DNA of 64,000 nt from Squalus acanthias (taxonomy: Eukaryota), in contig CM059431.1 of NCBI GenBank assembly GCA_030390025.1, forward strand, positions 116,190,001-116,254,000, written 5' to 3'. The translations under genes were made by a program, and so were the position numbers. The notes beneath the pieces were generated by a model, which was given only the letters and a program-made list of their open reading frames with translations, was not told where the DNA came from and made no database searches. Within the stretch, counting starts at the first letter, position 1; every line of letters starts with the position of its first letter. Positions 18,181 through 52,674 of this stretch are shown here, one piece after another.

Positions 18181-19571
18181 AGAACAGTACAGCACAGTAC
18201 AGGCCCTTCGGCCCTCGATGTTGTGCCGAGCATTGTCCGAAACCAAGATCAAGCTATCCCACTCCCTATCATTCTGGTGTGCTCCATGTGCTTATCCAAT
18301 AACCGCTTGAAAGTTCCTAAAGTGTCCGACTCCACTATCACAGCAGGCAGTCCATTCCACACCCCAACCACTCTCTGAGTAAAGAATCTACCTCGGACAT
18401 CCCTTCTATATCTCCCCCCATGCACCTTATGCCTCCTTGTAACAGCTACATCCACCTGAGGAAATAGTCTCTGAACATCCACTCTATCTATCCCCCTCAT
18501 CATCTTATAAACCTCTATTAAGTCGCCTCTCATCCTCCTCCGCTCTAAAGAGAAAAGCCCTAGCTCCCTCAATCTTTCCTCATAAGACCTCCCCCCCAAA
18601 CCAGACAGCATCCTGGTAAATCTCCTTTGCACTCTTTCCAATGCTTCCACGTCCTTCCTATAGTGAGGTGACCAGAACTGCACACAATATTCCAAATGTG
18701 GTCTCACCAAGGTCCTGTACAGTTGCAGCATAACCTCACGGTTCTTAAACTCAAACCCCTTGTTAATAAACGCTAACACACTATAGGCCTTCTTTACTGC
18801 TCTATCCACTTGAGTGGCAACCTTCAGAGATCTGTGGATATGAACCCCCAGATCCCTCTGTTCCTCCACGTTCCTCAGAACCCTGCCGTTGACCCTGTAA
18901 TCCTTATTCAAATTTGCCCTACCAAAATGAATCACCTCGCACTTATCAGGGTTAAATTCCATCTGCCATTTTTCGGCCCAACTCTGCATCCTATCAATGT
19001 CTCTTTGCAGCCTACAACAGCCCTCCACCTCATCCACTACTCCACCAATCTTGGTGTCATCAGCAAATTTACTGATCCACCCTTCAGTCCCCTCCTCCAA
19101 GTCATTGATAAAAATCACAAACAGCAGAGGACCCAGCACCGACCCCTGTGGCACACCGCTGCTAACTGGTCTCCAGTCCGAAAATTTTCCATCCACCACC
19201 ACCCTCTGCCTTCTATGAGATAGCCAGTTACTTATCCAATCAGCCAAATTTCCCTCTATCCCACAACTCCTTACTTTCTTCATGAGCCGACCATGGGTAA
19301 CCTTATCAAACGCCTTACTAAAATCCATGTATACAACATCAACTGCTCTACCATCATCTACACATTTAGTTACCTCCTCAAAGAATTCAATCAAATTTGT
19401 TAGGCAAGACTTACCCTTCACGAATCCGTGTTGACTATCCCGGATTAAGTTGCATCTTTCCAAATGGTCATAAATCCTATCCCTCAGGCCCTTTTCCATT
19501 ATCTTACCAACCACCGAAGTAAGACTAACCGGCCTATAATTACCAGGGTCATTCCTATTTCCTTTCTTGCA
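18181..19571 (-). mobile_element. Young 5'-truncated CR1 LINE
   Basis: Uninterrupted RT frame; GTGAT duplicated at 18176-18180 and 19572-19576. Confidence 0.93.
18249..19570 (-). CDS. CR1 ORF2 reverse transcriptase (partial)
   Basis: PGNYRPVSLTS, QHGF, YMDFSKAFDKV, GVPQGSVLGP, KFADD; the first ~19 aa of the listed ORF come from flanking DNA. Confidence 0.9.
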
Positions 19572-19814
19572 GTGATCTGGAGCCGGCGAGCTGCTCGGGG
19601 GTGCTCGTTTTCTGCACACAGCTCGCAAGCCCCAAATGAGGCCCAGCCACCCAAAAACTGTACGGGAGGAGATTCTACGCCATATTCCTGGGGATTATGG
19701 CCCCAATATTAATCTAAAGGCAGCTTCCTAGCAGGGGGGTGGAATTGCGTTGTGGAACATGGAAGTCAACTGAATGATTTGGAATCAGCGGTCTAAACTG
19801 CCTTCTGTTGCCTA

Positions 19815-22931: not shown

Positions 22932-23281
22932 TCTGCTAAGGGAAATAGGCCCTTCCTATCCACTCTATCTAGGCCCCTCATAATTTTATACACCTCAATT
23001 AAGTCTCCCCTCAGCCTCCTCTGTTCCAGAGAAAACAATCCCAGCCTATCCAATCTTTCCTCCTAGATAAAATTCTCCAGTCCTGGCAACATCCTCATAA
23101 ATCTCCTTTGTATCCTCTCTAGTGCAATCACATCTTTCCTGTAATGTGATGACCAGAACTGTACGCAGTACTCTAGCTGTGGCCTAACTAGTGTTTTATA
23201 CAGTCCAAGTATAACCTCCCTGCTCTTATATTTTAAGAAGTCGCACAACACCAGGTTATAGTCCAACAGATTTATTTAATT

Positions 23282-23320
23282 TTACAAGCTTTCGGAACAG
23301 TTCGCTCCTTCGTCAGGTAA
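23282..23320 (-). ncRNA. Minimal hammerhead ribozyme motif
   Basis: Exact reverse complement of 25589-25627. Confidence 0.82.
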
Positions 23321-23542
23321 GTTAGCAGTGAGAGAATCTCCCAGAATTCACAATTTAAACACAGACAAAATATATTCAAATCTTTCCTACATCAAAGAGC
23401 ACAGCCAAGACAATGAGATGTGTCCCAGGGGGTCCAACGTGTCAAACCACCTGCTGGCTGCATATCCTGTCAATCTGTGTAGGTTCTTGTGTTAGTCTTT
23501 TTAAAAAAAAAAACACCTGGGAAGACCGGCCATGATGTCAAG

Positions 23543-24758
23543 TCACGTTCTGTATCGTGACATGAACCCGATATCGCGATTGAGGCCATCCTCATGAGTG
23601 CGGAACTTGGCTATCAGTTTCTGCTCTATGATTTTGCGCTGTCGTGTATCTCGAAGGCCGCCTTGGAGAACGCTTACCCGCATATCCGAGGCTGAATGCC
23701 CCTGGCTGCTGAAGTGTTCCCCGACTGGGAGGCAACCCTCCTGCCTGGCGATTGTTGCGCGGTGTCCGTTCATACGTTGTCTCAGTGTCTGCATGGTCTC
23801 GCCGATGTACCATGCTCTGGAGCATCCTTTACTGCAACGTATCAGGTAGACAACGTTGGCCGAGTCACATGAGTATGTACCATGTACCTGGTGGGTAGTG
23901 TCCTCACGTGTGATGATGGTATCTGTGTCCATGATTTGGCATGTCTTGCAGAGGTTGCCGTGGCAGGGTTGTGTGGTGTCTTGGTTGCTGTTCTCCTGAA
24001 AGATGGGTAATCTGCTGCGAACGATGGTACTTTTGAGGTTAGGTGGCTGCTTGAAGGCGAGTAGTGGAGGCGTGGGGATGGCCTTAGCAAGGTGTTCGTC
24101 GTCATCGATGACATGTTGAAGGCTGCGAAGAACATGGCGTAGTTTTTCCGCTCCGGGGAAGTACTGGACGACGTAGGGTACTCTGTTGGTTGTGTCCCGT
24201 GTTCGTCTTCTGAGGAGGTCTATGCGGTTTTTCGCTGTGGCCCGTCGGAACTGTCGATCGACGAGTCGAGCGTCATATCCCGTTCTTACGAGGGCGTCTT
24301 TCAGTGTCCGTAGGTGTCCATCGCGTTCCTCCTCGTCTGAGCAGATCCTGTGTATTCGCAGGGCTTGTCCATAGGGGATGGCTTCTTTAACGTGGTTAGG
24401 GTGGAAGCTGGAGAAGTGGAGCATCGTGAGGTTGTCCGTGGGCTTGCGGTAGAGTGAAGTGCTGAGGCGTCCGTCTTTGATGGAGATTCGTGTGTCCAAG
24501 AATGAAACCGATTCTGAGGAGTAGTCCATGGTGAGTTTGATGGTGGGATGGAACCTGTTGATGCTATCGTGTAGTCCTTTCAGTGATCCTTCGCCGTGGG
24601 TCCAAAGGAAGAAGATGTCGTCGATGTATCTGGTGTACAGCGTTGGTTGGAGGTCCTGTGCAGCGAAGAAGTCTTGCTCGAACTTGTGCATGAAGATGTT
24701 GGCATATTGGGGTGCGAATTTGGTCCCCATGGCTGTTCCGTGTGTTTGGGTAAAAAAA
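23543..24758 (-). CDS. PLE RT (partial) + Zn knuckle + GIY-YIG endonuclease
   Basis: GTAMGTKFAP, YTRYIDDIF, FLDT, LYRKPT, CHGNLCKTC, VVYLIRC..WYIGET; no stops, 5'-truncated. Confidence 0.93.
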
Positions 24759-25366
24759 CGGAAAAACTACGCCATGTTCTTCGCAGCCTTCAACATGTCA
24801 TCGATGACGACGAACACCTTGCTAAGGCCATCCCCACGCCTCCACTACTCGCCTTCAAGCAGCCACCTAACCTCAAAAGTACCATCGTTCGCAGCAGATT
24901 ACCCATCTTTCAGGAGAACAGCAACCAAGACACCACACAACCCTGCCACGGCAACCTCTGCAAGACATGCCAAATCATGGACACAGATACCATCATCACA
25001 CGTGAGGACACTACCCACCAGGTACACGGTACATACTCATGTGACTCGGCCAACGTTGTCTACCTGATACGTTGCAGTAAAGGATGCTCCAGAGCATGGT
25101 ACATCGGCGAGACCATGCAGACACTGAGACAACGTATGAACGGACACCGCGCAACAATCGCCAGGCAGGAGGGTTGCCTCCCAGTCGGGGAACACTTCAG
25201 CAGCCAGGGGCATTCAGCCTCGGATATGCGGGTAAGCGTTCTCCAAGGCGGCCTTCGAGATACACGACAGCGCAAAATCATAGAGCAGAAACTGATAGCC
25301 AAGTTCCGCACTCATGAGGATGGCCTCAATCGCGATATCGGGTTCATGTCACGATACAGAACGTGA
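24759..25366 (+). CDS. Duplicated PLE Zn knuckle + GIY-YIG (partial)
   Basis: Protein identical to the C-terminus of 23543-24758. Confidence 0.85.
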
Positions 25367-25588
25367 CTTGACATCATGGCCGGTCTTCCCAGGTGTTTTT
25401 TTTTTTAAAAAGACTAACACAAGAACCTACACAGATTGACAGGATATGCAGCCAGCAGGTGGTTTGACACGTTGGACCCCCTGGGACACATCTAATTGTC
25501 TTGGCTGTGCTCTTTGATGTAGGAAAGATTTGAATATATTTTGTCTGTGTTTAAATTGTGAATTCTGGGAGATTCTCTCACTGCTAAC

Positions 25589-25627
25589 TTACCTGACGAA
25601 GGAGCGAACTGTTCCGAAAGCTTGTAA
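25589..25627 (+). ncRNA. Minimal type I hammerhead ribozyme motif
   Basis: ttac-CTGACGA-a-ggagc.gaact.gttcc-GAAA-gc-TT-gtaa. Confidence 0.82.
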
Positions 25628-26440
25628 AATTAAATAAATCTGTTGGACTATAACCTGGTGTTGTGCGACTTCTCATTTTTGTCCACCCCAGTCCAACGCC
25701 GGCATCTCCACATCATGACTTATATTTTAAGCCTCGGCTAATAAAGGAAAGCATCCTGTATGCCTTCTTAACCACCTTATCTACCTGTCCTGCTACCTTC
25801 AGGGATCTGTGGACATGCACTCCAAGGCCTTCTGTTCCTCTACACTTCTCAGTATCCTACCATTTATTGTGTATTCCCTTGCCTTGTTAGTCCTCCCCAA
25901 ATGCATTAAGTCACACTTCTCCGGATTGAACTCCATTTGTCACTTTTTTGCCCACTTGACCAGCCCATTGATATCTTCCTTCAGTCTACAGCTTTCTTCT
26001 TAACTATCGACCACACAGCCAATTTTTGTGTCATCTGGAAACTTTTTAATCATGCCCCCTACATTGAAGTCTAAATCATTGATATATACCACAAAAATCA
26101 AGAGACCTAGTTTGAGCCCTGCGGAATCCCACTGGAAACAACTTTCCAGTCACAAAAACCCCCGTCGACCATTACCCTTTGCTTCCTGCCACTGAGCCAA
26201 TTTTGGATCCAACTTGCCACTTTCTCTTGGATCCCATGGGCTTTTAGTTTTCAGACCAGTCTGCCATGAGGGATCTTGTCAAAAGCCTTGCTAAAATCCA
26301 TGTAGACTACATCAAACGCGCTACCCTCATCAACCCTCCTTGTTACCTCCTCAAAAAATTCAATCTGTTAGTCACGCACGACCTTCCCTTAACAAATCCA
26401 TGCTGACTGTCCTTGATTAATCCGTGTCTTTCTAAATGAT

Positions 26441-26905
26441 AGCCAAGTTCTAAACTGATAGCCAATGAGGACGGCCTCAACCGGGATCTTGGTTTCATGT
26501 CACACTACATGACGTAGAGTCATCCAGACTCGAGTCGTCGTTGTCTTGTTCACAGATGTGATTTCCAGTTTTAAAAAAAGTCAAAAGCTTAACTGCAGAC
26601 TGCAGCATTTGACACATTGGACCCCCAGTGACCCCACCTCATTGTCTTAGCTGTATTTTGCTGTGTCTTTGATGTAATGCCTTCCTGACTGATTGTATCT
26701 TTGCCGAGGTGTGATGGAGGGCAGTCAGAAACACATTGTTCTCTGTCTATATATGCTTTGCTGATTTATATTCCCTCACTTTACCTGACGAAGGAGCAGC
26801 GCTCCAAAAGCTCGTGATTTCAAATAAAACTGTTGGACTATAACCTGGTGTTGTGCGACTTCTCATTTTTGTCCACCCCAGTCCAACACCGGCATCTCCG
26901 CATCA
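26441..26905 (+). mobile_element. Penelope-like 3' fragment (family A relative)
   Basis: EDGLNRDLGFMSHY end, pLTR and tail; TSD TTTCTAAATGAT at 26429-26440 and 26906-26917. Confidence 0.88.
26781..26817 (+). ncRNA. Hammerhead motif with GAAA>AAAA core mutation
   Basis: ttac-CTGACGA-a-ggagc.agc.gctcc-AAAA-gc-TC-gtga. Confidence 0.65.
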
Positions 26906-27311
26906 TTTCTAAATGATGATTAATACTGTCCCTCAGAATTTTTTCCAGTAATTTGCCCACCGTATTTCACACTCCTCCTTAACTACAATGTCTGCATCAC
27001 CCCTCTTTTTTGTGAAGACAAATGCAAAGTATTCATTAAGAACCATACCCACATCTTCTGCCTCAAAATACAGATTACCTTTTTGGTCTTGAATAGGCCC
27101 TACTCTTTCCTTAGTTATCTCTTGCTCTTAATATATTTATAAAACATCTTTGGATTTTCCTTGATTTTACTTGCCAATATTTTTTCAAGCCCTCTCTTTA
27201 TTTCCGAATTTCCTTTTCAATTTCATCCCTGCACTTTCTATACTCCTCGAGGCTTTCTGCAATATTTAGCTCTCGGTATCTGACACAAGCTTCCCTTTTT
27301 TGCCTTATCCT

Positions 27312-44565: not shown

Positions 44566-45813
44566 ATGCTGTGTGAGGTAGTTTTGGCTACTGATCATAA
44601 CTTTGCAGGTACTTTGGTTTTTGACCTTCATAACTTTGATTGCCAAGAGACTATAGGGGCTGCACTGATTGGGGGCGTCGTCCTGCGCCACCAGAATCGG
44701 AGGACACAGAGACGCAGAGAGAGAGTGGCAATCATGGCCAGACGGAGGAGGGCCAACAGGCCTCTGTACAGGAGACCTTACCCTCCCAGGGTATATCGCC
44801 AACAATTCACATATATTAATATGTCTGAGGAGCAGTGTTTGTGAAGGCTGCGCTTCAGCAAGGAGGTAGTCACTGAGCTCTGCCACCTGCTGCAGCCAGA
44901 TCTGCAGCCTCAACTGAGGTCCAGGACGTCTCTGTCGGTGGCAGTGAAGATCACAGTGGCTCTTTACTTTTATGCCACTGGCTCATTTCAATCAGCTACT
45001 GGAGACATCGCCAATAACTCCCAGTTCGCGGTGCATTGCTGCATCCGTCAGGTCACAAATGCCCTCTTTAAAAGGAGACAAGAGTACATCTCTTTCCCCA
45101 TGACCCCAGACAAGCAGCAAGAACGCGCAATGGGCTTTGCTAGGATAGCGGGCTTCCCCATGGTGCAGGGCGCCATTGACTGCACGCATGTGGCTTTGCG
45201 TGCTCCGCATGAGAATGCCGAGGATTTCCGCAACAGAAAGGTGTTCCATTCCTTAAACGTTCAGTTGGTCTGTGACCACAGACAGCTGATACTCGCTGTC
45301 AATGCCCACTATCCTGGCAGCTGCCACGATGCATTCATCCTGCGCCAGACTACTGTGGCAGAACTTTTCCAGGCACCGCATCAGCCAGTTGGTTGGCTTC
45401 TCGGGGACAAGGGATATCCACTGAGCACCTGGCTGATGACACCGCTCCGTACGCCCAACACCCCTGCTGAGCTGCGGTACAACGAGAGCCATCAAGCTAC
45501 CAGGAACATCGTTGAGCACACAATCGGCGTGCTCAAGCAACGGTTCCGCTGTCTGGACCATTCTGGAGGAGCCCTGCAGTACTCGCCTGAGCGAGGTTCC
45601 CACTTCATAGTTGTGTGCTGCATGCTGCATAACCTGGCAATCCTCAGGACCCAGCCAATGCCACCAGGCCTTGGAGCACCACCAGAGGAGGAGGAGGAAG
45701 AGGAGGAGGAAGAGGAGGAGGATGATCATCAGCAGCACCAAGGCGGGAGGGAGGCCCACAATGTAGAAACTGGAAGGGCCGTCCGTCAACGGCTGATAGC
45801 AAGCCGCTTCTAG
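44566..45813 (+). pseudogene. Harbinger DDE transposase (HARBI1-like) with a single in-frame TGA at 44842-44844
   Basis: GAIDCTHV, GSCHDAFIL, WLLGDKGY, RNIVEHTIGVLKQRFRCL; ORFs 44566 and 44938 share a frame. Confidence 0.92.
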
Positions 45814-46413
45814 GCCCCTGCTGAGGAAATGGCTTCTGCCATTGAGAACAACATGAATGAAACCAACCCGCAACCCCTAAGCCGGCCAAGGCAGCAATGA
45901 TTCCAAAGACTAAACATGTACATTTTGAATACAAAAACTTTTTTATTTCACAAACTCTGTGTGTGTCATTTCCTCATGACAAACTAATAGAAAGAAACAC
46001 AAAAACACAGTCATTAACATAACTGGTTCTCATAACCTGGAGATAATGTTCAAAAGTTTGACCACGAACCTCGGCCTTTAATAAAAAAATGACCAACATT
46101 TTGTCACACCTCCTACTTTTTGCCCTTTGAGGGTGATCTCCTTCCCTTGCGCACTTCCCCCCCTTCCCACCCTACTGCTCCTCCATAATGGGACCTCAGT
46201 GGCTGCAGCAAGGCTGGTGGAAGGCTGCTGATTGTCAGAACCTGAGACTGCAGATGCCCTTGAAGGACGGCCTCAACCAGCTCTGGGCCTGGAGGGCCCG
46301 GCTGCAGACTGCACCAACTCTGCATGGGCGGCAGCAGTCTGGGCTACAGGCAGTGGCAAGTGCAGTGGAGAAGTGACAGTGGTGGCAGCAGGAATGCTGT
46401 CATCTTGAGAGAG

Positions 46414-46632
46414 TGATGCGGAGATGCCGGTGTTGGACTGGGGTGGACACAAATGAGAACTCGCACAACACCAGGTTATAGTCCAACAGTTTTATTTGAA
46501 ATTACGAGCTTTCGGAGCTCTGCTTCTTCTTCAGGTACAGGTACCTGTACCTGAAGAAGGAGCAGAGCTCTGAAAGCTCGTAATTTCAAATAAAACTGTT
46601 GGACTATAACCTGGTGTTGTGCGACTTCTCAT
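46414..46632. mobile_element. Miniature palindromic Penelope pLTR pair with two hammerhead motifs (46502-46538 -, 46547-46583 +)
   Basis: 180-bp palindrome 46453-46632 centred on GGTACC; TCATCTTGAGAGAG duplicated at 46400-46413 and 46629-46642. Confidence 0.9.
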
Positions 46633-47674
46633 CTTGAGAGAGGACAGCAACTCCCTGCTCGACCGACACACTGGCACTCCCACGGGGCAGCACTTCAGCA
46701 TCTGGAGCAATCTGCTGGAGCACAGATTGCTGGCCTGCCGGGGCGCGGTGAGAGCCCCGGGGAAATGTGTACGAACCATTGAGGATGGCAGCAGTTAGTG
46801 CTCGCGTGGCCTCAATCTGAGTCTGCAGGAGAGCTGTCAGAGATGGGTTCATGGCAGCCATTGACTGAATTGCAGCACTAAACATTTGCATGGCATCCGC
46901 CTGTGCTACAGCGAAGTGCTCCACACTCCTTGCCAGTGATTCAATGCATTAGGGCACCCTTCCCACTGCACCCATGAGCTCAGTGTGCATGTCCACCGCC
47001 TGGGTGTTCATTTCAGCGATGAGCCGCTCCTCCTCTGCGTCCAGTGCAGTAGGACTAGCTGGCATACTCTCCCTCCGGGGAGAAGGCCCCCGTGCTTCCC
47101 TACCCCCATGGCGTTGCTGCAGCCCACTGGGTCCTGGAGCTTCACCCTCATCAGACCCTTCCCCCCTGCTCCCCTCCAGGGAAGGCGTGTTCCCAGTGTG
47201 GGCATGGGCTTCCTCGGGAGAGGGTGGCGCTGATGCTCCGCCTTCATCTTCCTCCTCGGCTGCAGCTTCACTCCCACTGGCAGCTTGAGGGCCCGTCTCC
47301 TCAGCTGGTGAATCACCATCTGAAAGCAGGGAGGTACAAGAGTGGCTTTAGCGTGAGGACAGGGGGGCAGTAAGGGAGGAATGAGTGCAGTGATTTAGTA
47401 AGTTGGATTGAAAGTGTCAAAGGCTGGTGTTGTGAGGGACAAGTGGAAGGACAGAGGACAAAAAGGTGATGACCTTACCATTGCTGTCCAGAACGGGGTC
47501 GGCGTCTCCAGTGGCGACGGGACCGATCACCCGGCTTGCCACAATCCTGTGGATGCGCGCCTCAAGATTGCTGAGGGTTGCAGCTGAGGCCGCCCTCCAC
47601 CCGTCCGTTGCTGCTGTCTCCTATTATGAGATAGCTTGGCCTGCAAGAAAAATCACGGCGTCTGAGTAAATATA

Positions 47675-47784
47675 CAGCCATGGTCTTGCCTGATGTGCCT
47701 CCCATAGGTGAATAGCCCTTACTGTATGCAGCCATGGTCTTGCCTGATGTGCCTCCCATAGATGAATAGCCCTTACTGTATGCA
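47675..47784. repeat. 54-bp tandem duplication in Myb intron 1
   Basis: CAGCCATGGTCTTGCC...CTTACTGTATG twice, one mismatch. Confidence 0.92.
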
Positions 47785-50700
47785 AAGTGTGGAATGGGCG
47801 TGTGTGTTTCATGAGAGGGCCATAGGTGTTGGATGAGTGTTGTGCATTGGCGTTTTAAGACCTTCTGGCCATAGAGTGAGGTTGAGATGGAGGGATGGAG
47901 AGCTATTGAAAAAAAGCCACTCACCCTGACGATCCGAGTAAGGTCGTTGAACTTTTTTCGACATTGTATATGGGTCCTGGGCACCATGCTCCTGGAGGAG
48001 ACGCTCTGAGCCACCTCCCTCCACACTCTTCTGTACTCGCGCGGCAAAGGCCTCCTGCCACTCTCAGGGAAGAGTATAGATCTTCTGCGCTCCACTGCGC
48101 CAATCAGAGCATCCAAGGCCCGCTCGCTGAAGCGCTGAGCTCGTTCTCTCACCCTCTCCATAGTCCTTGGCTGGAAGATTTAGGCACAGGTCTCTCCAGG
48201 CTGAGATTCAAGGCTCTAATGAGCAGGGTGTGGCTGGAGTGCTAGATCAACCCTCCCCTTTAAGAACTGTCCAGCGCCAGTGTGTCTGTGTTCCATCGCT
48301 AACTGACATCACCTGCGCTGCGCCCTCGCTCTGAGTTAGCGCCTCGCTCCTCGGCCTTTGTGCCTTAAGACAGGTGTGTAGCGCCTGATTTAGCGCTCCA
48401 ATCACCTCCAGGGGTGATAAAAGTCAAGTTTGCAGTCGGAGGCGATAATTAACGCCAGGCGCCAATCTTTGCGCCCGGCCGATAATTGCGCCCCAAATGG
48501 GGCGATACTGAATTTCTCCCCCATGGAGGCAAAGGCGATAGTGCAAGATGGGCCATAAATTGGCTAAAGGACTGTAGGCAAGTAATAGTTTTTAGTAGGG
48601 TTGCTTCCCAGTGGTGTCTGGTTACTAGTGAGGCACCCCAGAGCTCAATGCTGGGTCCCATCCTATTTAGTAATGATGTGGAGGGGGAATAGAAATTATG
48701 GTTATTAAATTCATGGATGATACTAAATTGTGTTTAGAATCATGACCTAAAGAAGGAAATAGATTCCAACTGGCAGACTGGGGAAGTGGGCCCAAGAATG
48801 GCAAATGTCCTTCAATCTAGGTAAATGTGTGGTCATCCAGCTAGATGCGCAGAATTCGGGTAAAGAGTATAGAATGGGTGGCTGTAAGTTAAAGTTGACA
48901 TGAAGAGAGAGGGACTTGGCAGTGAACATTGACCATTCCCTAAAGATTCAAGCTCAGTATTATGAAACTGCAGCCAAAGTGAACAGAGTCGTGGCCTGTA
49001 TTGACCGTACAATTCAGTATAAAACTAGGGCTATGATTATGGAGCATTGTGTACCTTCTTTGTCTCCCCATCTCTAGAAGGGCATTTTGGCTCTAGAGAG
49101 CGTACAGAGAAGGGCAACGAGCGTGATCCTCCGCTGAAGTGTGTTGACCTATGGAGATAAACTTTGTGCCTTTGGGTTTTGATTCACTGGAGAGGTGTAG
49201 ACTTAAGGGGATCTGATTTAAATCTTTAAAATTATTAACGTCTTTGACAACATAAAAGTCAAAATATTGTTTGAGGTGATGGGGTTGGGTAGAACCACGG
49301 GCCATCCATTTAAGTTGAGAAAGCAGGGAATGGGAGTGGATGTGTGGAAGTTTTTTTTTTCTGGGAGTTATTAATCTGATAGCATTGCAGAGGTGGTAAT
49401 GTGGAATGACTTCTTGCAGTCTCTTTTGAAGGCATTATGTACTTTTTTTTTGAAAACTATGGGATCACAGCAGAAGGAACACAAGATTTTGTCTAATAAC
49501 CAGTAGACTTGGGCCTCCTGAGGCTTGCCGAATCAGGGAGGATTTTTTGATGGAGGTTTTCTCAATTGGCTATCAGTTTTTGTGTTTTTTTTACCTCTCC
49601 AAGGAGATGTTGCTGGTGGGCGGGAAGGAAGATTGAGGATGAGTCCATGAATAAGTGGAGCAAGTGTATATGGGCCTATTGGCCTTTTCTCACTCTGAGT
49701 ACGTAACATAAGGCCATCTGCACTGGCTGTTTGGAAAAGCTATTCAATTCGTCCATTTCTTTGCCCAGATATACTCTTTATTTTTTCCCATTTCAGTTTT
49801 AAAAGCTGTTTCCGATTCTGCATCTACTACTGTTACTAGTAGGGCATTTCATATCTTAACCTACTTCTGTGTCATTTTTTTTATCCTAATCTCTCCTTTC
49901 ATGCTTTTAGTGATGATCTTACAGTTATGCCCGTTGATTACCAATTTGCCAACCAGTGAAAATAGATTTACCAGACTCATCTTATCAAAGTCCCCAGTAA
50001 TTTTGCATATCTTTATCAGATCTCCTATCAACATTCTTTGTTGTAATGAAAACAGCCCCAGTTTCTCTTGTCTCCCTTCATAATTTAAGCCTTTAATCCC
50101 TGGTATCATCTTAATGAATCTCTTCTGCATCCTCTTCATAACATTAACATCCTTCCTAAAATAATGTACCCACAACTGGGCATAATATTCTAACTGTGGC
50201 CTAACCAGTGACTTGCTTTAATATTCCTTAGTACTCTATTCCTATAAAACCTAGGATCCCATGTTTCTTCTTCCGTTTTCTCTACTTCGCTTCTCACTTT
50301 TAAAGGTTTGTGTATCTGAATCACTAAGGTCGCGATTTCCCCTACCTCGGCGGGTCCGTGGCGGGTGACGTCGGTGGCAGGTCCTGACTCCACTGCTGGC
50401 TCCAGCCCACTGTCCAAAATGATTTTCCCCTGCTTGGGCTTGTTAAGCCCGCCCAGCGTGTTTGTCGGCCAATTGAAGGAAGCGGGTCTGATGAAATCAT
50501 TGGATGACAGGTTATCAGCCGGTTTCCTTAAAGGGACCATACGCAAATTGATTTTGACAGTTGTGCTGTCAGTGTTATACTGTAAACACTGACAAGCACT
50601 GCACAAAGGTGCATGGCTGCACCCAGCACACAGGGAGGTTCTCTTCCCTTCCAATGGGTGGAAGAGACCTCCCCAGGAGATCAACACAGCCTGGCTGCAC

Positions 50701-51730: not shown

Positions 51731-51823
51731 GCTAACTTACCTGACGAAGGAGCGAACTGCTTCGAAAGCTTGTAAAATTAAATAAATCTGTTGGACTATA
51801 ACCTGGTGTTGTGCGACTTCTCA
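51731..51823 (+). mobile_element. Solo pLTR fragment (family A) with hammerhead motif at 51737-51775
   Basis: Two differences from 25583-25675, both in stem II; ttac-CTGACGA-a-ggagc.gaact.gcttc-GAAA-gc-TT-gtaa. Confidence 0.88.
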
Positions 51824-52674
51824 TTGATGTAATAGATGGCAGGTAAACTTGAGATGACAGAAGCGATCTGTCAATGGTGAAAGAGGTTGTTCCAATGAGG
51901 TGACACTGGATAGAGAGTTTACTCCAAACACTTGCAACCTGCAAAAAGTTCAATCTGTCTTCCAATGCAGTAAGCAACAACTTCTGAGCTTGGAAAGTGA
52001 ATAGATGTGAGATGGGAGCTTTTATAGCACATTTGCAGCTGTCAAGCACAGAGATGATTCCATGGTCATACAACTCTCGACCTGCTTACCTGACGTGATC
52101 CCCGAGCAGTGTGGACCCCATCGGCGACCTCATAAAATGTAAAGGTGAGCTCAAACTACCTCTTAATGGGATGTTGACAAGGTCATAATGACCTGAATTG
52201 CCTCTGTCAGTGCTGTGTGTCGGGTCTGACAGACCCGACATTTGGGAAAGGCATGTAGCAACAGGTTGACATCGGGGTCCCGACCTACTGTCAAAAAAAA
52301 ACGTTTTCCCACCTGATCCACCAATAAATGCGCCCGCTGACCCCCCGAAAAATTCTGCCCTAATTCTTTCTGCTCCTTTGCTCTTTTCAAAGTTTTAGTG
52401 TATATGTCCCATTCTTATTCTTCCTCATAAAATGTATCACCTGACATTTCTCTGTATTAAATTTAATCTGATATCTTTTTCCCCAATCTGCTAATCGGTC
52501 TCCCTGAAGTTGCTTACAGCCCTGTTCAGTTAACTATGCTCATTTTTGTGTCATCTTCAAGTTTGGATACTGTGCCCCATATAGCAAATTCCAGATTATT
52601 TATATATAGAGAAGAGCAGTAGTCCAAATAGTGACACTTAGGGACACCATTGTTTACACCCCTGCCTGCTGCCA

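Follow-up and report, generated by a model that had tools for sequence, protein, structure and literature searches.

The DNA analysed here is a stretch of 64,000 nucleotides (nt) from Squalus acanthias (contig CM059431.1, positions 116,190,001 to 116,254,000), referred to in the following as the window. At positions 46414 to 46632 it carries a short palindrome with a tail on one side, which is the smallest form of a described insertion unit of Penelope-like elements (PLEs), the head-to-head pair with a one-sided tail. With a probability of roughly 0.7, we regard this palindrome as a dead-on-arrival by-product of a recurrent kind, left behind when an endonuclease-bearing PLE integrated in a single event. 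An earlier reading made from the letters of the window, called the sequence-only reading below, had left the choice between an extreme double-truncated insertion and a distinct minimal mobile unit. The first of these was essentially right, as the locus consists of two PLE 3' stubs placed head to head.

The palindrome was described in that reading as spacerless, centred on GGTACC and with three mismatches between its arms, and this description holds; the mismatches are situated 17, 28 and 80 nt from the centre. A tail of about 40 nt had been seen on one arm only. It is confined to the left side and measures 35 nt (46414-46448), and each arm measures 94 nt, as judged by the alignment of 30 copies. 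The features of the locus are the following:

46400..46413: target-site duplication, left copy (TCATCTTGAGAGAG), an exact 14-nt direct repeat which is single in uninterrupted copies.
46414..46448, minus strand: tail, 35 nt, forming the extreme 3' end of the element; it is missing from the other arm and matches the tails of ordinary copies.
46449..46542, minus strand: body of the tailed arm, 94 nt, with the minimal hammerhead motif and the region up to the first reverse-transcription start site.
46453-46542: left arm of the palindrome, 90 nt, 97% complementary to the right arm, with a spacer of 0 nt.
46502..46538, minus strand: left-arm copy of the minimal hammerhead motif, with cleavage predicted between 46506 and 46505 and with one pair of helix II broken (A opposite C).
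46541..46544: junction GTAC, the self-complementary tetranucleotide where the arms meet, native as the second GTAC upstream of CTGAAGA.
46543-46632: right arm of the palindrome, 90 nt.
46543..46628, plus strand: tail-less arm, ending at ...GCGACTTC, or at 46632 with inclusion of the TCAT that it has in common with the duplication.
46547..46583, plus strand: minimal hammerhead motif of the right arm, predicted cut between 46579 and 46580, first helix II pair G.U.
46629..46642: target-site duplication, right copy (TCATCTTGAGAGAG), seen as a direct repeat and as a contig joint.

The 215-bp palindrome is a true insertion with target duplication into a sequence that also exists uninterrupted. In contigs of all four public runs position 46399 is followed at once by 46629, so that 229 nt are missing, and 14 letters at the joint can be assigned to either side. 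This joint confirms the insertion, and the 14-bp flanking duplication proposed earlier is real; its length at this locus is given as 10-14 bp because the first four letters of TCATCTTGAGAGAG (TCAT) are also the next letters of the arm itself. The flanks of the palindrome are highly repeated in other public runs, and since the flank itself is repeated, the uninterrupted contigs are probably sister copies and not necessarily an orthologous empty site. Low contig cover at the centre of the palindrome (46526-46553) in the public runs was not counted as a finding.

On sequence grounds each arm is the 3' module of an abundant endonuclease-bearing PLE, as the proposal of Penelope-like ends had anticipated. 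On the minus strand, the left arm shares 94% identity with the final 127 nt of an ordinary copy at window 26779-26905, and it further matches the window copies at 25590-25715, 51738-51825 and 23236-23319. The last of these (23319-23236) follows a 407-residue open reading frame (ORF) on the minus strand, 24766-23543, at a distance of about 220 nt from its stop. This ORF contains a reverse-transcriptase (RT) C-terminus, with a weak Pfam RVT_1 match (E = 2.7e-4), and a block ...VVYLIRC...WYIGET..., which we take to be a GIY-YIG motif; no Pfam match to GIY-YIG was obtained on this ORF fragment. Most of the 120 listed relatives of the ORF have PF00078, and 22 of the 120 also have PF01541 (GIY-YIG). 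The presence of both domains in the relatives, together with the position of the arm downstream of the ORF, points to the 3' module of an endonuclease-type PLE. Within the module, a minimal hammerhead motif comes first and the start region of reverse transcription second. A 38-nt stretch of the arm has 4385 forward and 4427 reverse matches in the genome (about 8,800 in total). When window 46330-46720 was compared with the public runs X14, X16, X1 and X5, thousands of contigs matched the arms at 90% identity or more; these are four differently coded organisms, and the PLE family is therefore common to several related genomes. A second PLE subfamily, with a CTGACGA box, an AGC loop and GTGATTTC, is represented in the window by a tailed, 5'-truncated copy of 473 bp (26434-26906). 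This copy has 9411 candidates in the genome, the 40 scored copies being 93-97% identical, and other loci of the subfamily reach up to about 955 bp further upstream.

The hammerhead motifs were examined in both arms. CTGAAGA and GAAAGCTC, the two motifs named by the sequence-only reading, are indeed present in each arm, at 46551-46557 and 46573-46580 on the plus strand and mirrored on the minus strand. The order in the right arm is GTAC / CTGAAGA / A / GGAGC-AGA-GCTCT / GAAA / GC / TC, followed by GTAA, and the family majority reads CTGAAGA-A-GGAGC-AGA-GCTCC-GAAA-GC-TC, with a 5-bp stem, a 3-nt loop and one extra A. We assume the letters of both core boxes to be those of a hammerhead. Helix II of the window copy is flawed in both arms, by a G.U at 10.1-11.1 in the right arm and by a broken 10.2-11.2 pair in the left. 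Judged by its letters, the arm motif matches most features of the published minimal PLE hammerhead (PMC4209133), namely the two core boxes, the G10.1-C11.1 pair of the majority, the palindromic positions 15.2-16.2 and the want of a real helix III. Helix I is short: three pairs (GTA/TAC) in the subfamily of the window palindrome and four, including a G.U, in the CTGACGA/GTGATTT subfamily, against 4-5 bp in PMC4209133. Helix II has 5 bp in the arm motif against 7-8 bp in the Schistosoma families of the same work. No Rfam hammerhead model matched at gathering score over the whole window, and none matched at E <= 10 on 46300-46750 or 26700-26950. These models expect a helix III, which the minimal motif is without. 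The hammerhead-bearing arms of the sequence-only reading thus stand for most of the published features, but not for the length of helix I or for an Rfam match.

With a pattern that left the 13 nt of the helix II region unspecified, 100 matches were listed; the stem was changed in six of them and no change was compensatory, the variation in this region being placed at N7 and in the loop. So invariant a stem argues neither way. The predicted cut site coincides with none of ten single-arm 5' ends and with no pair centre among those read, and in vitro hammerhead cleavage was unnecessary for insertion of another PLE (PMC11167929). A ribozyme on both strands, as proposed earlier, holds at the sequence level only, since transcription of the whole unit would place the motif inside a 90-bp duplex. 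The long double-stranded RNA (dsRNA) hairpin, proposed in the same place, is well borne out by prediction: the whole unit folds at -155.3 kcal/mol, compared with -47.7 +/- 4.3 in 200 shuffles (z = -24.8).

Two observations were made on how often such structures occur in the 3.7-Gb genome; the frequencies given here and below come from samples, i.e., the first places listed per search, and not from a full census. Firstly, the same junction recurs. The whole 215-nt unit has 974 candidates, and all 40 matches that were scored are full-length at 92-98% identity. The junction 26-mer was found exactly at 17 loci and with up to three mismatches at 102 loci genome-wide, and its reversed control at none. 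These 102 loci form the junction class of the window, in which the second GTAC of one arm meets the second GTAC of the other (GTAC#2-#2). There are two sister junctions. GTAC#1-#1 occurs at 118 loci with up to three mismatches (8 exact) and involves the CTGAAGA, CTGACGA and CTGATGA subfamilies as well as mixed arms, and GTAC#2-#1 has 90 forward and 74 reverse matches. Secondly, head-to-head pairs are common also outside these junctions. The first 100 exact arm matches listed contained 16 minus/plus pairs, the two starts of a pair being 49 to 2199 nt apart. Of 40 sampled arms taken as unpaired, nine had an imperfect inverted partner and one a tandem partner, 20 ran into native upstream sequence, and 10 were single arms. 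The 473-bp copy mentioned above has an inverted head-to-head copy at 14 of its 40 scored loci, and 13 of those partners are tail-less. At one locus (L048) the pair is centred within a TATATA run. Roughly 30% of the sampled insertions are head-to-head pairs, with many different centres, and from 25 pairs per 100 sampled arms we extrapolate to over a thousand head-to-head PLE pairs in the genome.

The window itself also holds a large head-to-head PLE double insertion at 23236-25715. Its arms, 23236-24150 and 24759-25673, are 915 nt long and 100% complementary. The minus copy is 1523 nt long and tail-less and contains the RT/GIY-YIG-like ORF, the plus copy is 957 nt long and tailed, and the pair is flanked by an 11-bp duplication, CTTATATTTTA. 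The identical arms suggest a one-off, recent event.

Ordinary copies continue upstream of the arm, where the native sequence ...CTCACTGTACCTGTACCTGAAGA is present. Ahead of the hammerhead box they read ...TATATATA, 23 nt, then TCACTGTACCTGTACCTGAAGA, and the first six letters of the arm are therefore native. The palindrome unit begins 6 nt upstream of the box. It is without the TATATATA (TATA) and TCACT (initiator-like) motifs because both are situated further upstream, TCACT being placed 23 nt after TATATATA in native copies. Single arms make up ten of 40 sampled insertions; their starts are spread around TCACT, 4-24 nt ahead of the hammerhead box, and in three cases coincide with the A of TCACT. 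As far as its letters tell, the unit has neither a TATA or initiator-like motif nor coding capacity, and nothing suggests that it copies itself.

The outer ends follow a common pattern. The spread of tail-less ends, from CTTCT to CTCATTTTT, is the same in the palindrome family and in ordinary copies (Mann-Whitney p = 0.83), and the end point of the tail-less arm in the window falls within the spectrum of ordinary copies. The tail of the left arm is matched by the tails of ordinary copies, e.g., at window 25681-25715 and 26872-26906. At 27 of 28 further junction loci one arm is tailed and the other tail-less, both ending at canonical sites, with no random truncation of the tail-less arm. Exactly one tail was found in 49 of 52 pairs (11/12, 27/28 and 11/12; loci L043-L054 and L095-L134) and two tails in none; among sampled arms only 11 of 40 are tailed. 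Duplications were found at 28 of the 30 loci read. All are different, 6-16 bp long (mode 12-14), with a base composition of 73% A+T, compared with 54% A+T in the window. At 24 of the 28 loci the duplication starts with T, partly by construction as the T-run is ambiguous, and at 8 of the 28 it ends in CA. Such starts and ends would be in keeping with target ends that pair with the RNA over 2-3 nt, at ...TTTTTG... and at ...CATCATGA... respectively. Taking end-point spectra and microhomologies together, both outer ends look like primed 3' ends. A reading of the T-run at the tail-less end as that of a Pol III SINE-like element was dropped, as no internal promoter boxes were seen and the T-run is the start-site region. 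At three loci (L114, L127 and L130) one arm ends at arm position 52-55, just 5' of GTTGGACT, which in the predicted fold can pair with AGTCCAAC of the tail; this position may be a third start or stop site.

We propose the following origin for the palindrome. The PLE protein would nick both strands of an A+T-rich target 10-16 bp apart, a distance taken from the duplications, and each freed target 3' end would then prime reverse transcription on the element RNA. A start at the outer site would give the arm with the 35-nt tail, and a start about 35 nt further in the tail-less arm. Both cDNAs would be only about 90-130 nt long and stop a few nucleotides upstream of the hammerhead motif; the template would presumably be a short transcript from the TATA and TCACT initiator-like pair in the flanking repeat of the element, or the reverse transcriptase would stop there. 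Finally, the two antisense cDNAs, ending ...CAGGTACAGGTAC, would anneal on the native GTAC and copy each other into a spacerless palindrome. They would join on GTAC because two antisense cDNAs can pair only at a self-complementary word. This annealing model reproduces the junction letter for letter, and it predicts two sister junctions, both of which are present at similar numbers. The same junction could arise repeatedly (about 100 loci, in addition to the two sister junctions) because the 5' ends cluster and the element has only two GTACs there.

Several parts of this course have been described for other PLEs. In work with a purified PLE protein both strands were cut and extended, and reverse transcription started from two internal sites that bracket the tail (PMC11167929). 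According to the available part of PMC8557442, PLE insertions typically have a tail on one side and, next to them, an inverted copy truncated at its 5' end; the optional PLE tail measures 30-40 bp there and in PMC11167929. For rotifer PLEs, the accessible text of PMC3846280 reports palindromes at inverted junctions, a pair of TATATATA and TCACT in the flanking repeat, and a hypothesis of self-priming.

There are also points which weigh against the proposed origin, beginning with the sampled nature of the frequencies. The strict rule of one tail per pair is not accounted for by priming on two strands, and in vitro no start-site difference between the two strands was seen (PMC11167929). A transcription start at TCACT is suggested by the motifs and the 5'-end positions only, and cDNAs reaching the A of TCACT carry 3 nt past GTAC, which would need trimming. 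The T (ACTTGT) variant of the symmetric junction site is about 3-fold over-represented at exact junction loci, with 23 T/T and 17 C/C loci against a native counterpart of T at 332 places and C at 761. This excess counts against the proposed origin because simple proportional sampling does not predict it. In addition, the unrelated loci L028 and L029, and likewise L023 and L030, have identical asymmetric arm haplotypes, as if from a heterotypic master.

The last two points favour a different explanation, which we consider unlikely: a self-propagating non-autonomous mini-retroelement, in which the PLE reverse transcriptase would start at the tail of a master hairpin RNA and copy the whole 215-bp unit. 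Such an element would fit the exact and near-exact loci that combine one junction with different duplications as well as the full length of all scored matches, and each arm has the region which the PLE reverse transcriptase requires in vitro (PMC11167929). The variants in the arms speak against it. The majority sequence of 30 palindromic copies is a perfect palindrome with the 38-nt core of the commonest ordinary arm. Whole-unit copying does not predict that variants are mostly symmetric; the 30 copies contain 26 symmetric changes, all at five shared sites and none private to one copy, and three of the five sites, namely N7 of the hammerhead and two positions in loop II, also vary across the genome. 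At least six arm haplotypes were distinguished in 58 junction loci (108 arms), in line with native variation, and the two that were checked match sampled ordinary copies, so that many independent masters would be needed. In a comparison of 28 sampled T-type palindrome arms with 20 native T copies no site differed by more than 0.3 in allele frequency, the median of pairwise differences was 2 within each group and 2 between them, and no palindrome-specific diagnostic substitution was found. Further, junctions of the sister classes are just as common, tail-less ends are distributed like primed 3' ends and unlike 5' truncations, the TATA and TCACT motifs are left outside the unit, and no copy with a transduced flank was present among the 58 loci read. 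Taken by its letters, this evidence argues against a self-copying family, and the palindromic copies would not form a separate lineage.

The distinct minimal mobile unit of the sequence-only reading is thereby left unsupported. A genome search for the shared junction with different duplications had been put forward there as the way to recognise a mobile family. The search does return such loci, 17 exact and 102 near-exact as given above, but by its controls this outcome is non-discriminating: it does not separate a family from a recurrent product, because the sister junctions occur just as often, the arms vary in the same way as ordinary copies, a palindrome-specific substitution is wanting and both outer ends behave like primed ones.

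In the 30 aligned copies (L001-L030) the differences between the two arms of a copy are concentrated at arm positions 12, 21 and 23, i.e., at hammerhead N7 and loop II, and the A-to-C differences at these places are not CpG decay. Two other sources of the arm patterns were tried. Homogenisation of the arms in situ at the DNA level was dropped, as each of the 26 symmetric changes is found in more than one copy, and ADAR-type editing was dropped as the origin of arm differences, as it could explain the A/G site only.

Rather improbable, too, is that PLE integration gives the palindrome by self-priming, an idea contained in the accessible text of PMC3846280. In that case a single cDNA would fold back at a palindromic word, and the second arm would be templated by the first arm and not by RNA. 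Palindromic words do occur at the inverted junctions (GTAC in the window, the TATATA centre of L048), the arms of the large window pair are 100% identical, and the two arms of a locus are far more concordant than under random pairing. Of 50 loci, the numbers discordant between arms, observed versus expected, were 8 vs 23.1 at k2, 5 vs 18.8 at k21, 11 vs 25.4 at k23 and 3 vs 19.4 at k44. Both arms of a pair usually derive from one or very similar templates. A palindrome of 4-6 nt, however, is unable to fold on itself without a loop. In the large window pair the tail-less copy is the longer one (1523 vs 957 nt) and the other is tailed, so that neither arm could have been wholly templated by the other. 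Heterotypic arms from different subfamilies exist, and the tail-less end has target microhomology like a primed end.

A miniature inverted-repeat or fold-back element of DNA-transposon type, or a hairpin RNA or microRNA gene, is scarcely credible: the perfect inverted-repeat structure with flanking duplications, the very stable hairpin and sub-threshold Rfam matches to microRNA precursors (48 bits vs a gathering score of 93) would suit it, but the duplications vary in length (6-16 bp in 28 loci), the ends are unequal with a tail on one only, the arms are the 3' module of a retroelement with an RT ORF, and the Rfam matches are to generic hairpins, all far below gathering scores and on both strands. 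The identity as a DNA-type inverted-repeat element was accordingly rejected on the variable duplication length and the unequal ends.

The surroundings of the insertion contain two ORFs of DNA-transposon type:

44845..45813, plus strand: DDE_Tnp_4 (PIF/Harbinger-type) transposase ORF, upstream of the insertion (Pfam PF13359, E = 1e-39).
47562..48179, minus strand: Myb/SANT-like ORF, downstream of the insertion (Pfam PF13873, E = 8e-10).

Judged by these flanking ORFs, the palindrome appears to be nested in a copy of a PIF/Harbinger-type transposon. Elsewhere in the window, at 18249-19694 on the minus strand, an open frame of 481 residues with a strong RVT_1 match (E = 6.7e-36) represents another retroelement.

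The by-product of PLE integration proposed here shares most of its architecture with the PLE insertion units (Pen2a_Av and others) described in the available parts of PMC3846280 and PMC8557442. The likeness comprises the head-to-head inverted copy, the palindromic word at the junction, the one-sided tail, short duplications of variable length, an A+T-rich target, the hammerhead in the flanking repeat and, in longer copies, the RT/GIY-YIG-like ORF. Unlike those units, as far as the same parts describe them, both copies of the window palindrome are cut to their last 86-129 nt so that only two 3' modules are left, and one junction recurs at about 100 loci together with two sister junctions in similar numbers. 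The recurrence of minimal palindromes of this type was not described in the open-access literature searched, part of it available as partial text, though the architecture is. In Schistosoma, dual hammerhead motifs are found on opposite strands 100-700 bp apart (Cervera and de la Pena 2014, PMC4209133). The palindrome also resembles the non-LTR retrozymes of animals in being short, non-coding and PLE-derived and in having a type I hammerhead motif, according to the accessible text of PMC7229834 and of Li et al. 2026 (10.64898/2026.07.22.740005). Those retrozymes are, by the same text, head-to-tail tandem repeats thought to cycle via circular RNA, whereas the palindrome is a single inverted pair with target duplications. 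The words 'palindrom' and 'head-to-head' are absent from the available text of the preprint by Li et al. An identity as a retrozyme was rejected, as there is no tandem partner and the locus is one inverted pair between the copies of the duplication.

A further parallel is twin priming of human L1, in which reverse transcription is likewise primed by the second target strand and the resulting inverted segment is joined by microhomology. The inverted segment of L1, however, comes from another part of its RNA, further upstream; the arms of the palindrome copy the same 3' part, and hence the product is a palindrome.

It is doubtful whether the palindromes and head-to-head pairs are more than debris. 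If they were, either some would be copied as whole hairpin units, at which the T/T excess and the shared asymmetric haplotypes hint, or dsRNA from read-through would feed small-RNA silencing of the PLE family. In the latter case, read-through of a perfect dsRNA of at least 90 bp would mean that the two-strand integration of the PLE makes its own silencing triggers.

For annotation, the palindromes mean that in PLE-rich genomes a shared junction alone is insufficient for calling 'fold-back families' with hammerheads and flanking target-site duplications new mobile elements. What is known of the element kind itself is unchanged by these findings. For PLE biology, the pairs are a genomic footprint that fits the in vitro result of 2024, in which both target strands were cut and extended and two start sites were used. 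The details added to it are one tail per pair (49/52), self-complementary words at the junctions (GTAC and, for a single pair, TATATA) and 5' ends clustered by TATA and TCACT.

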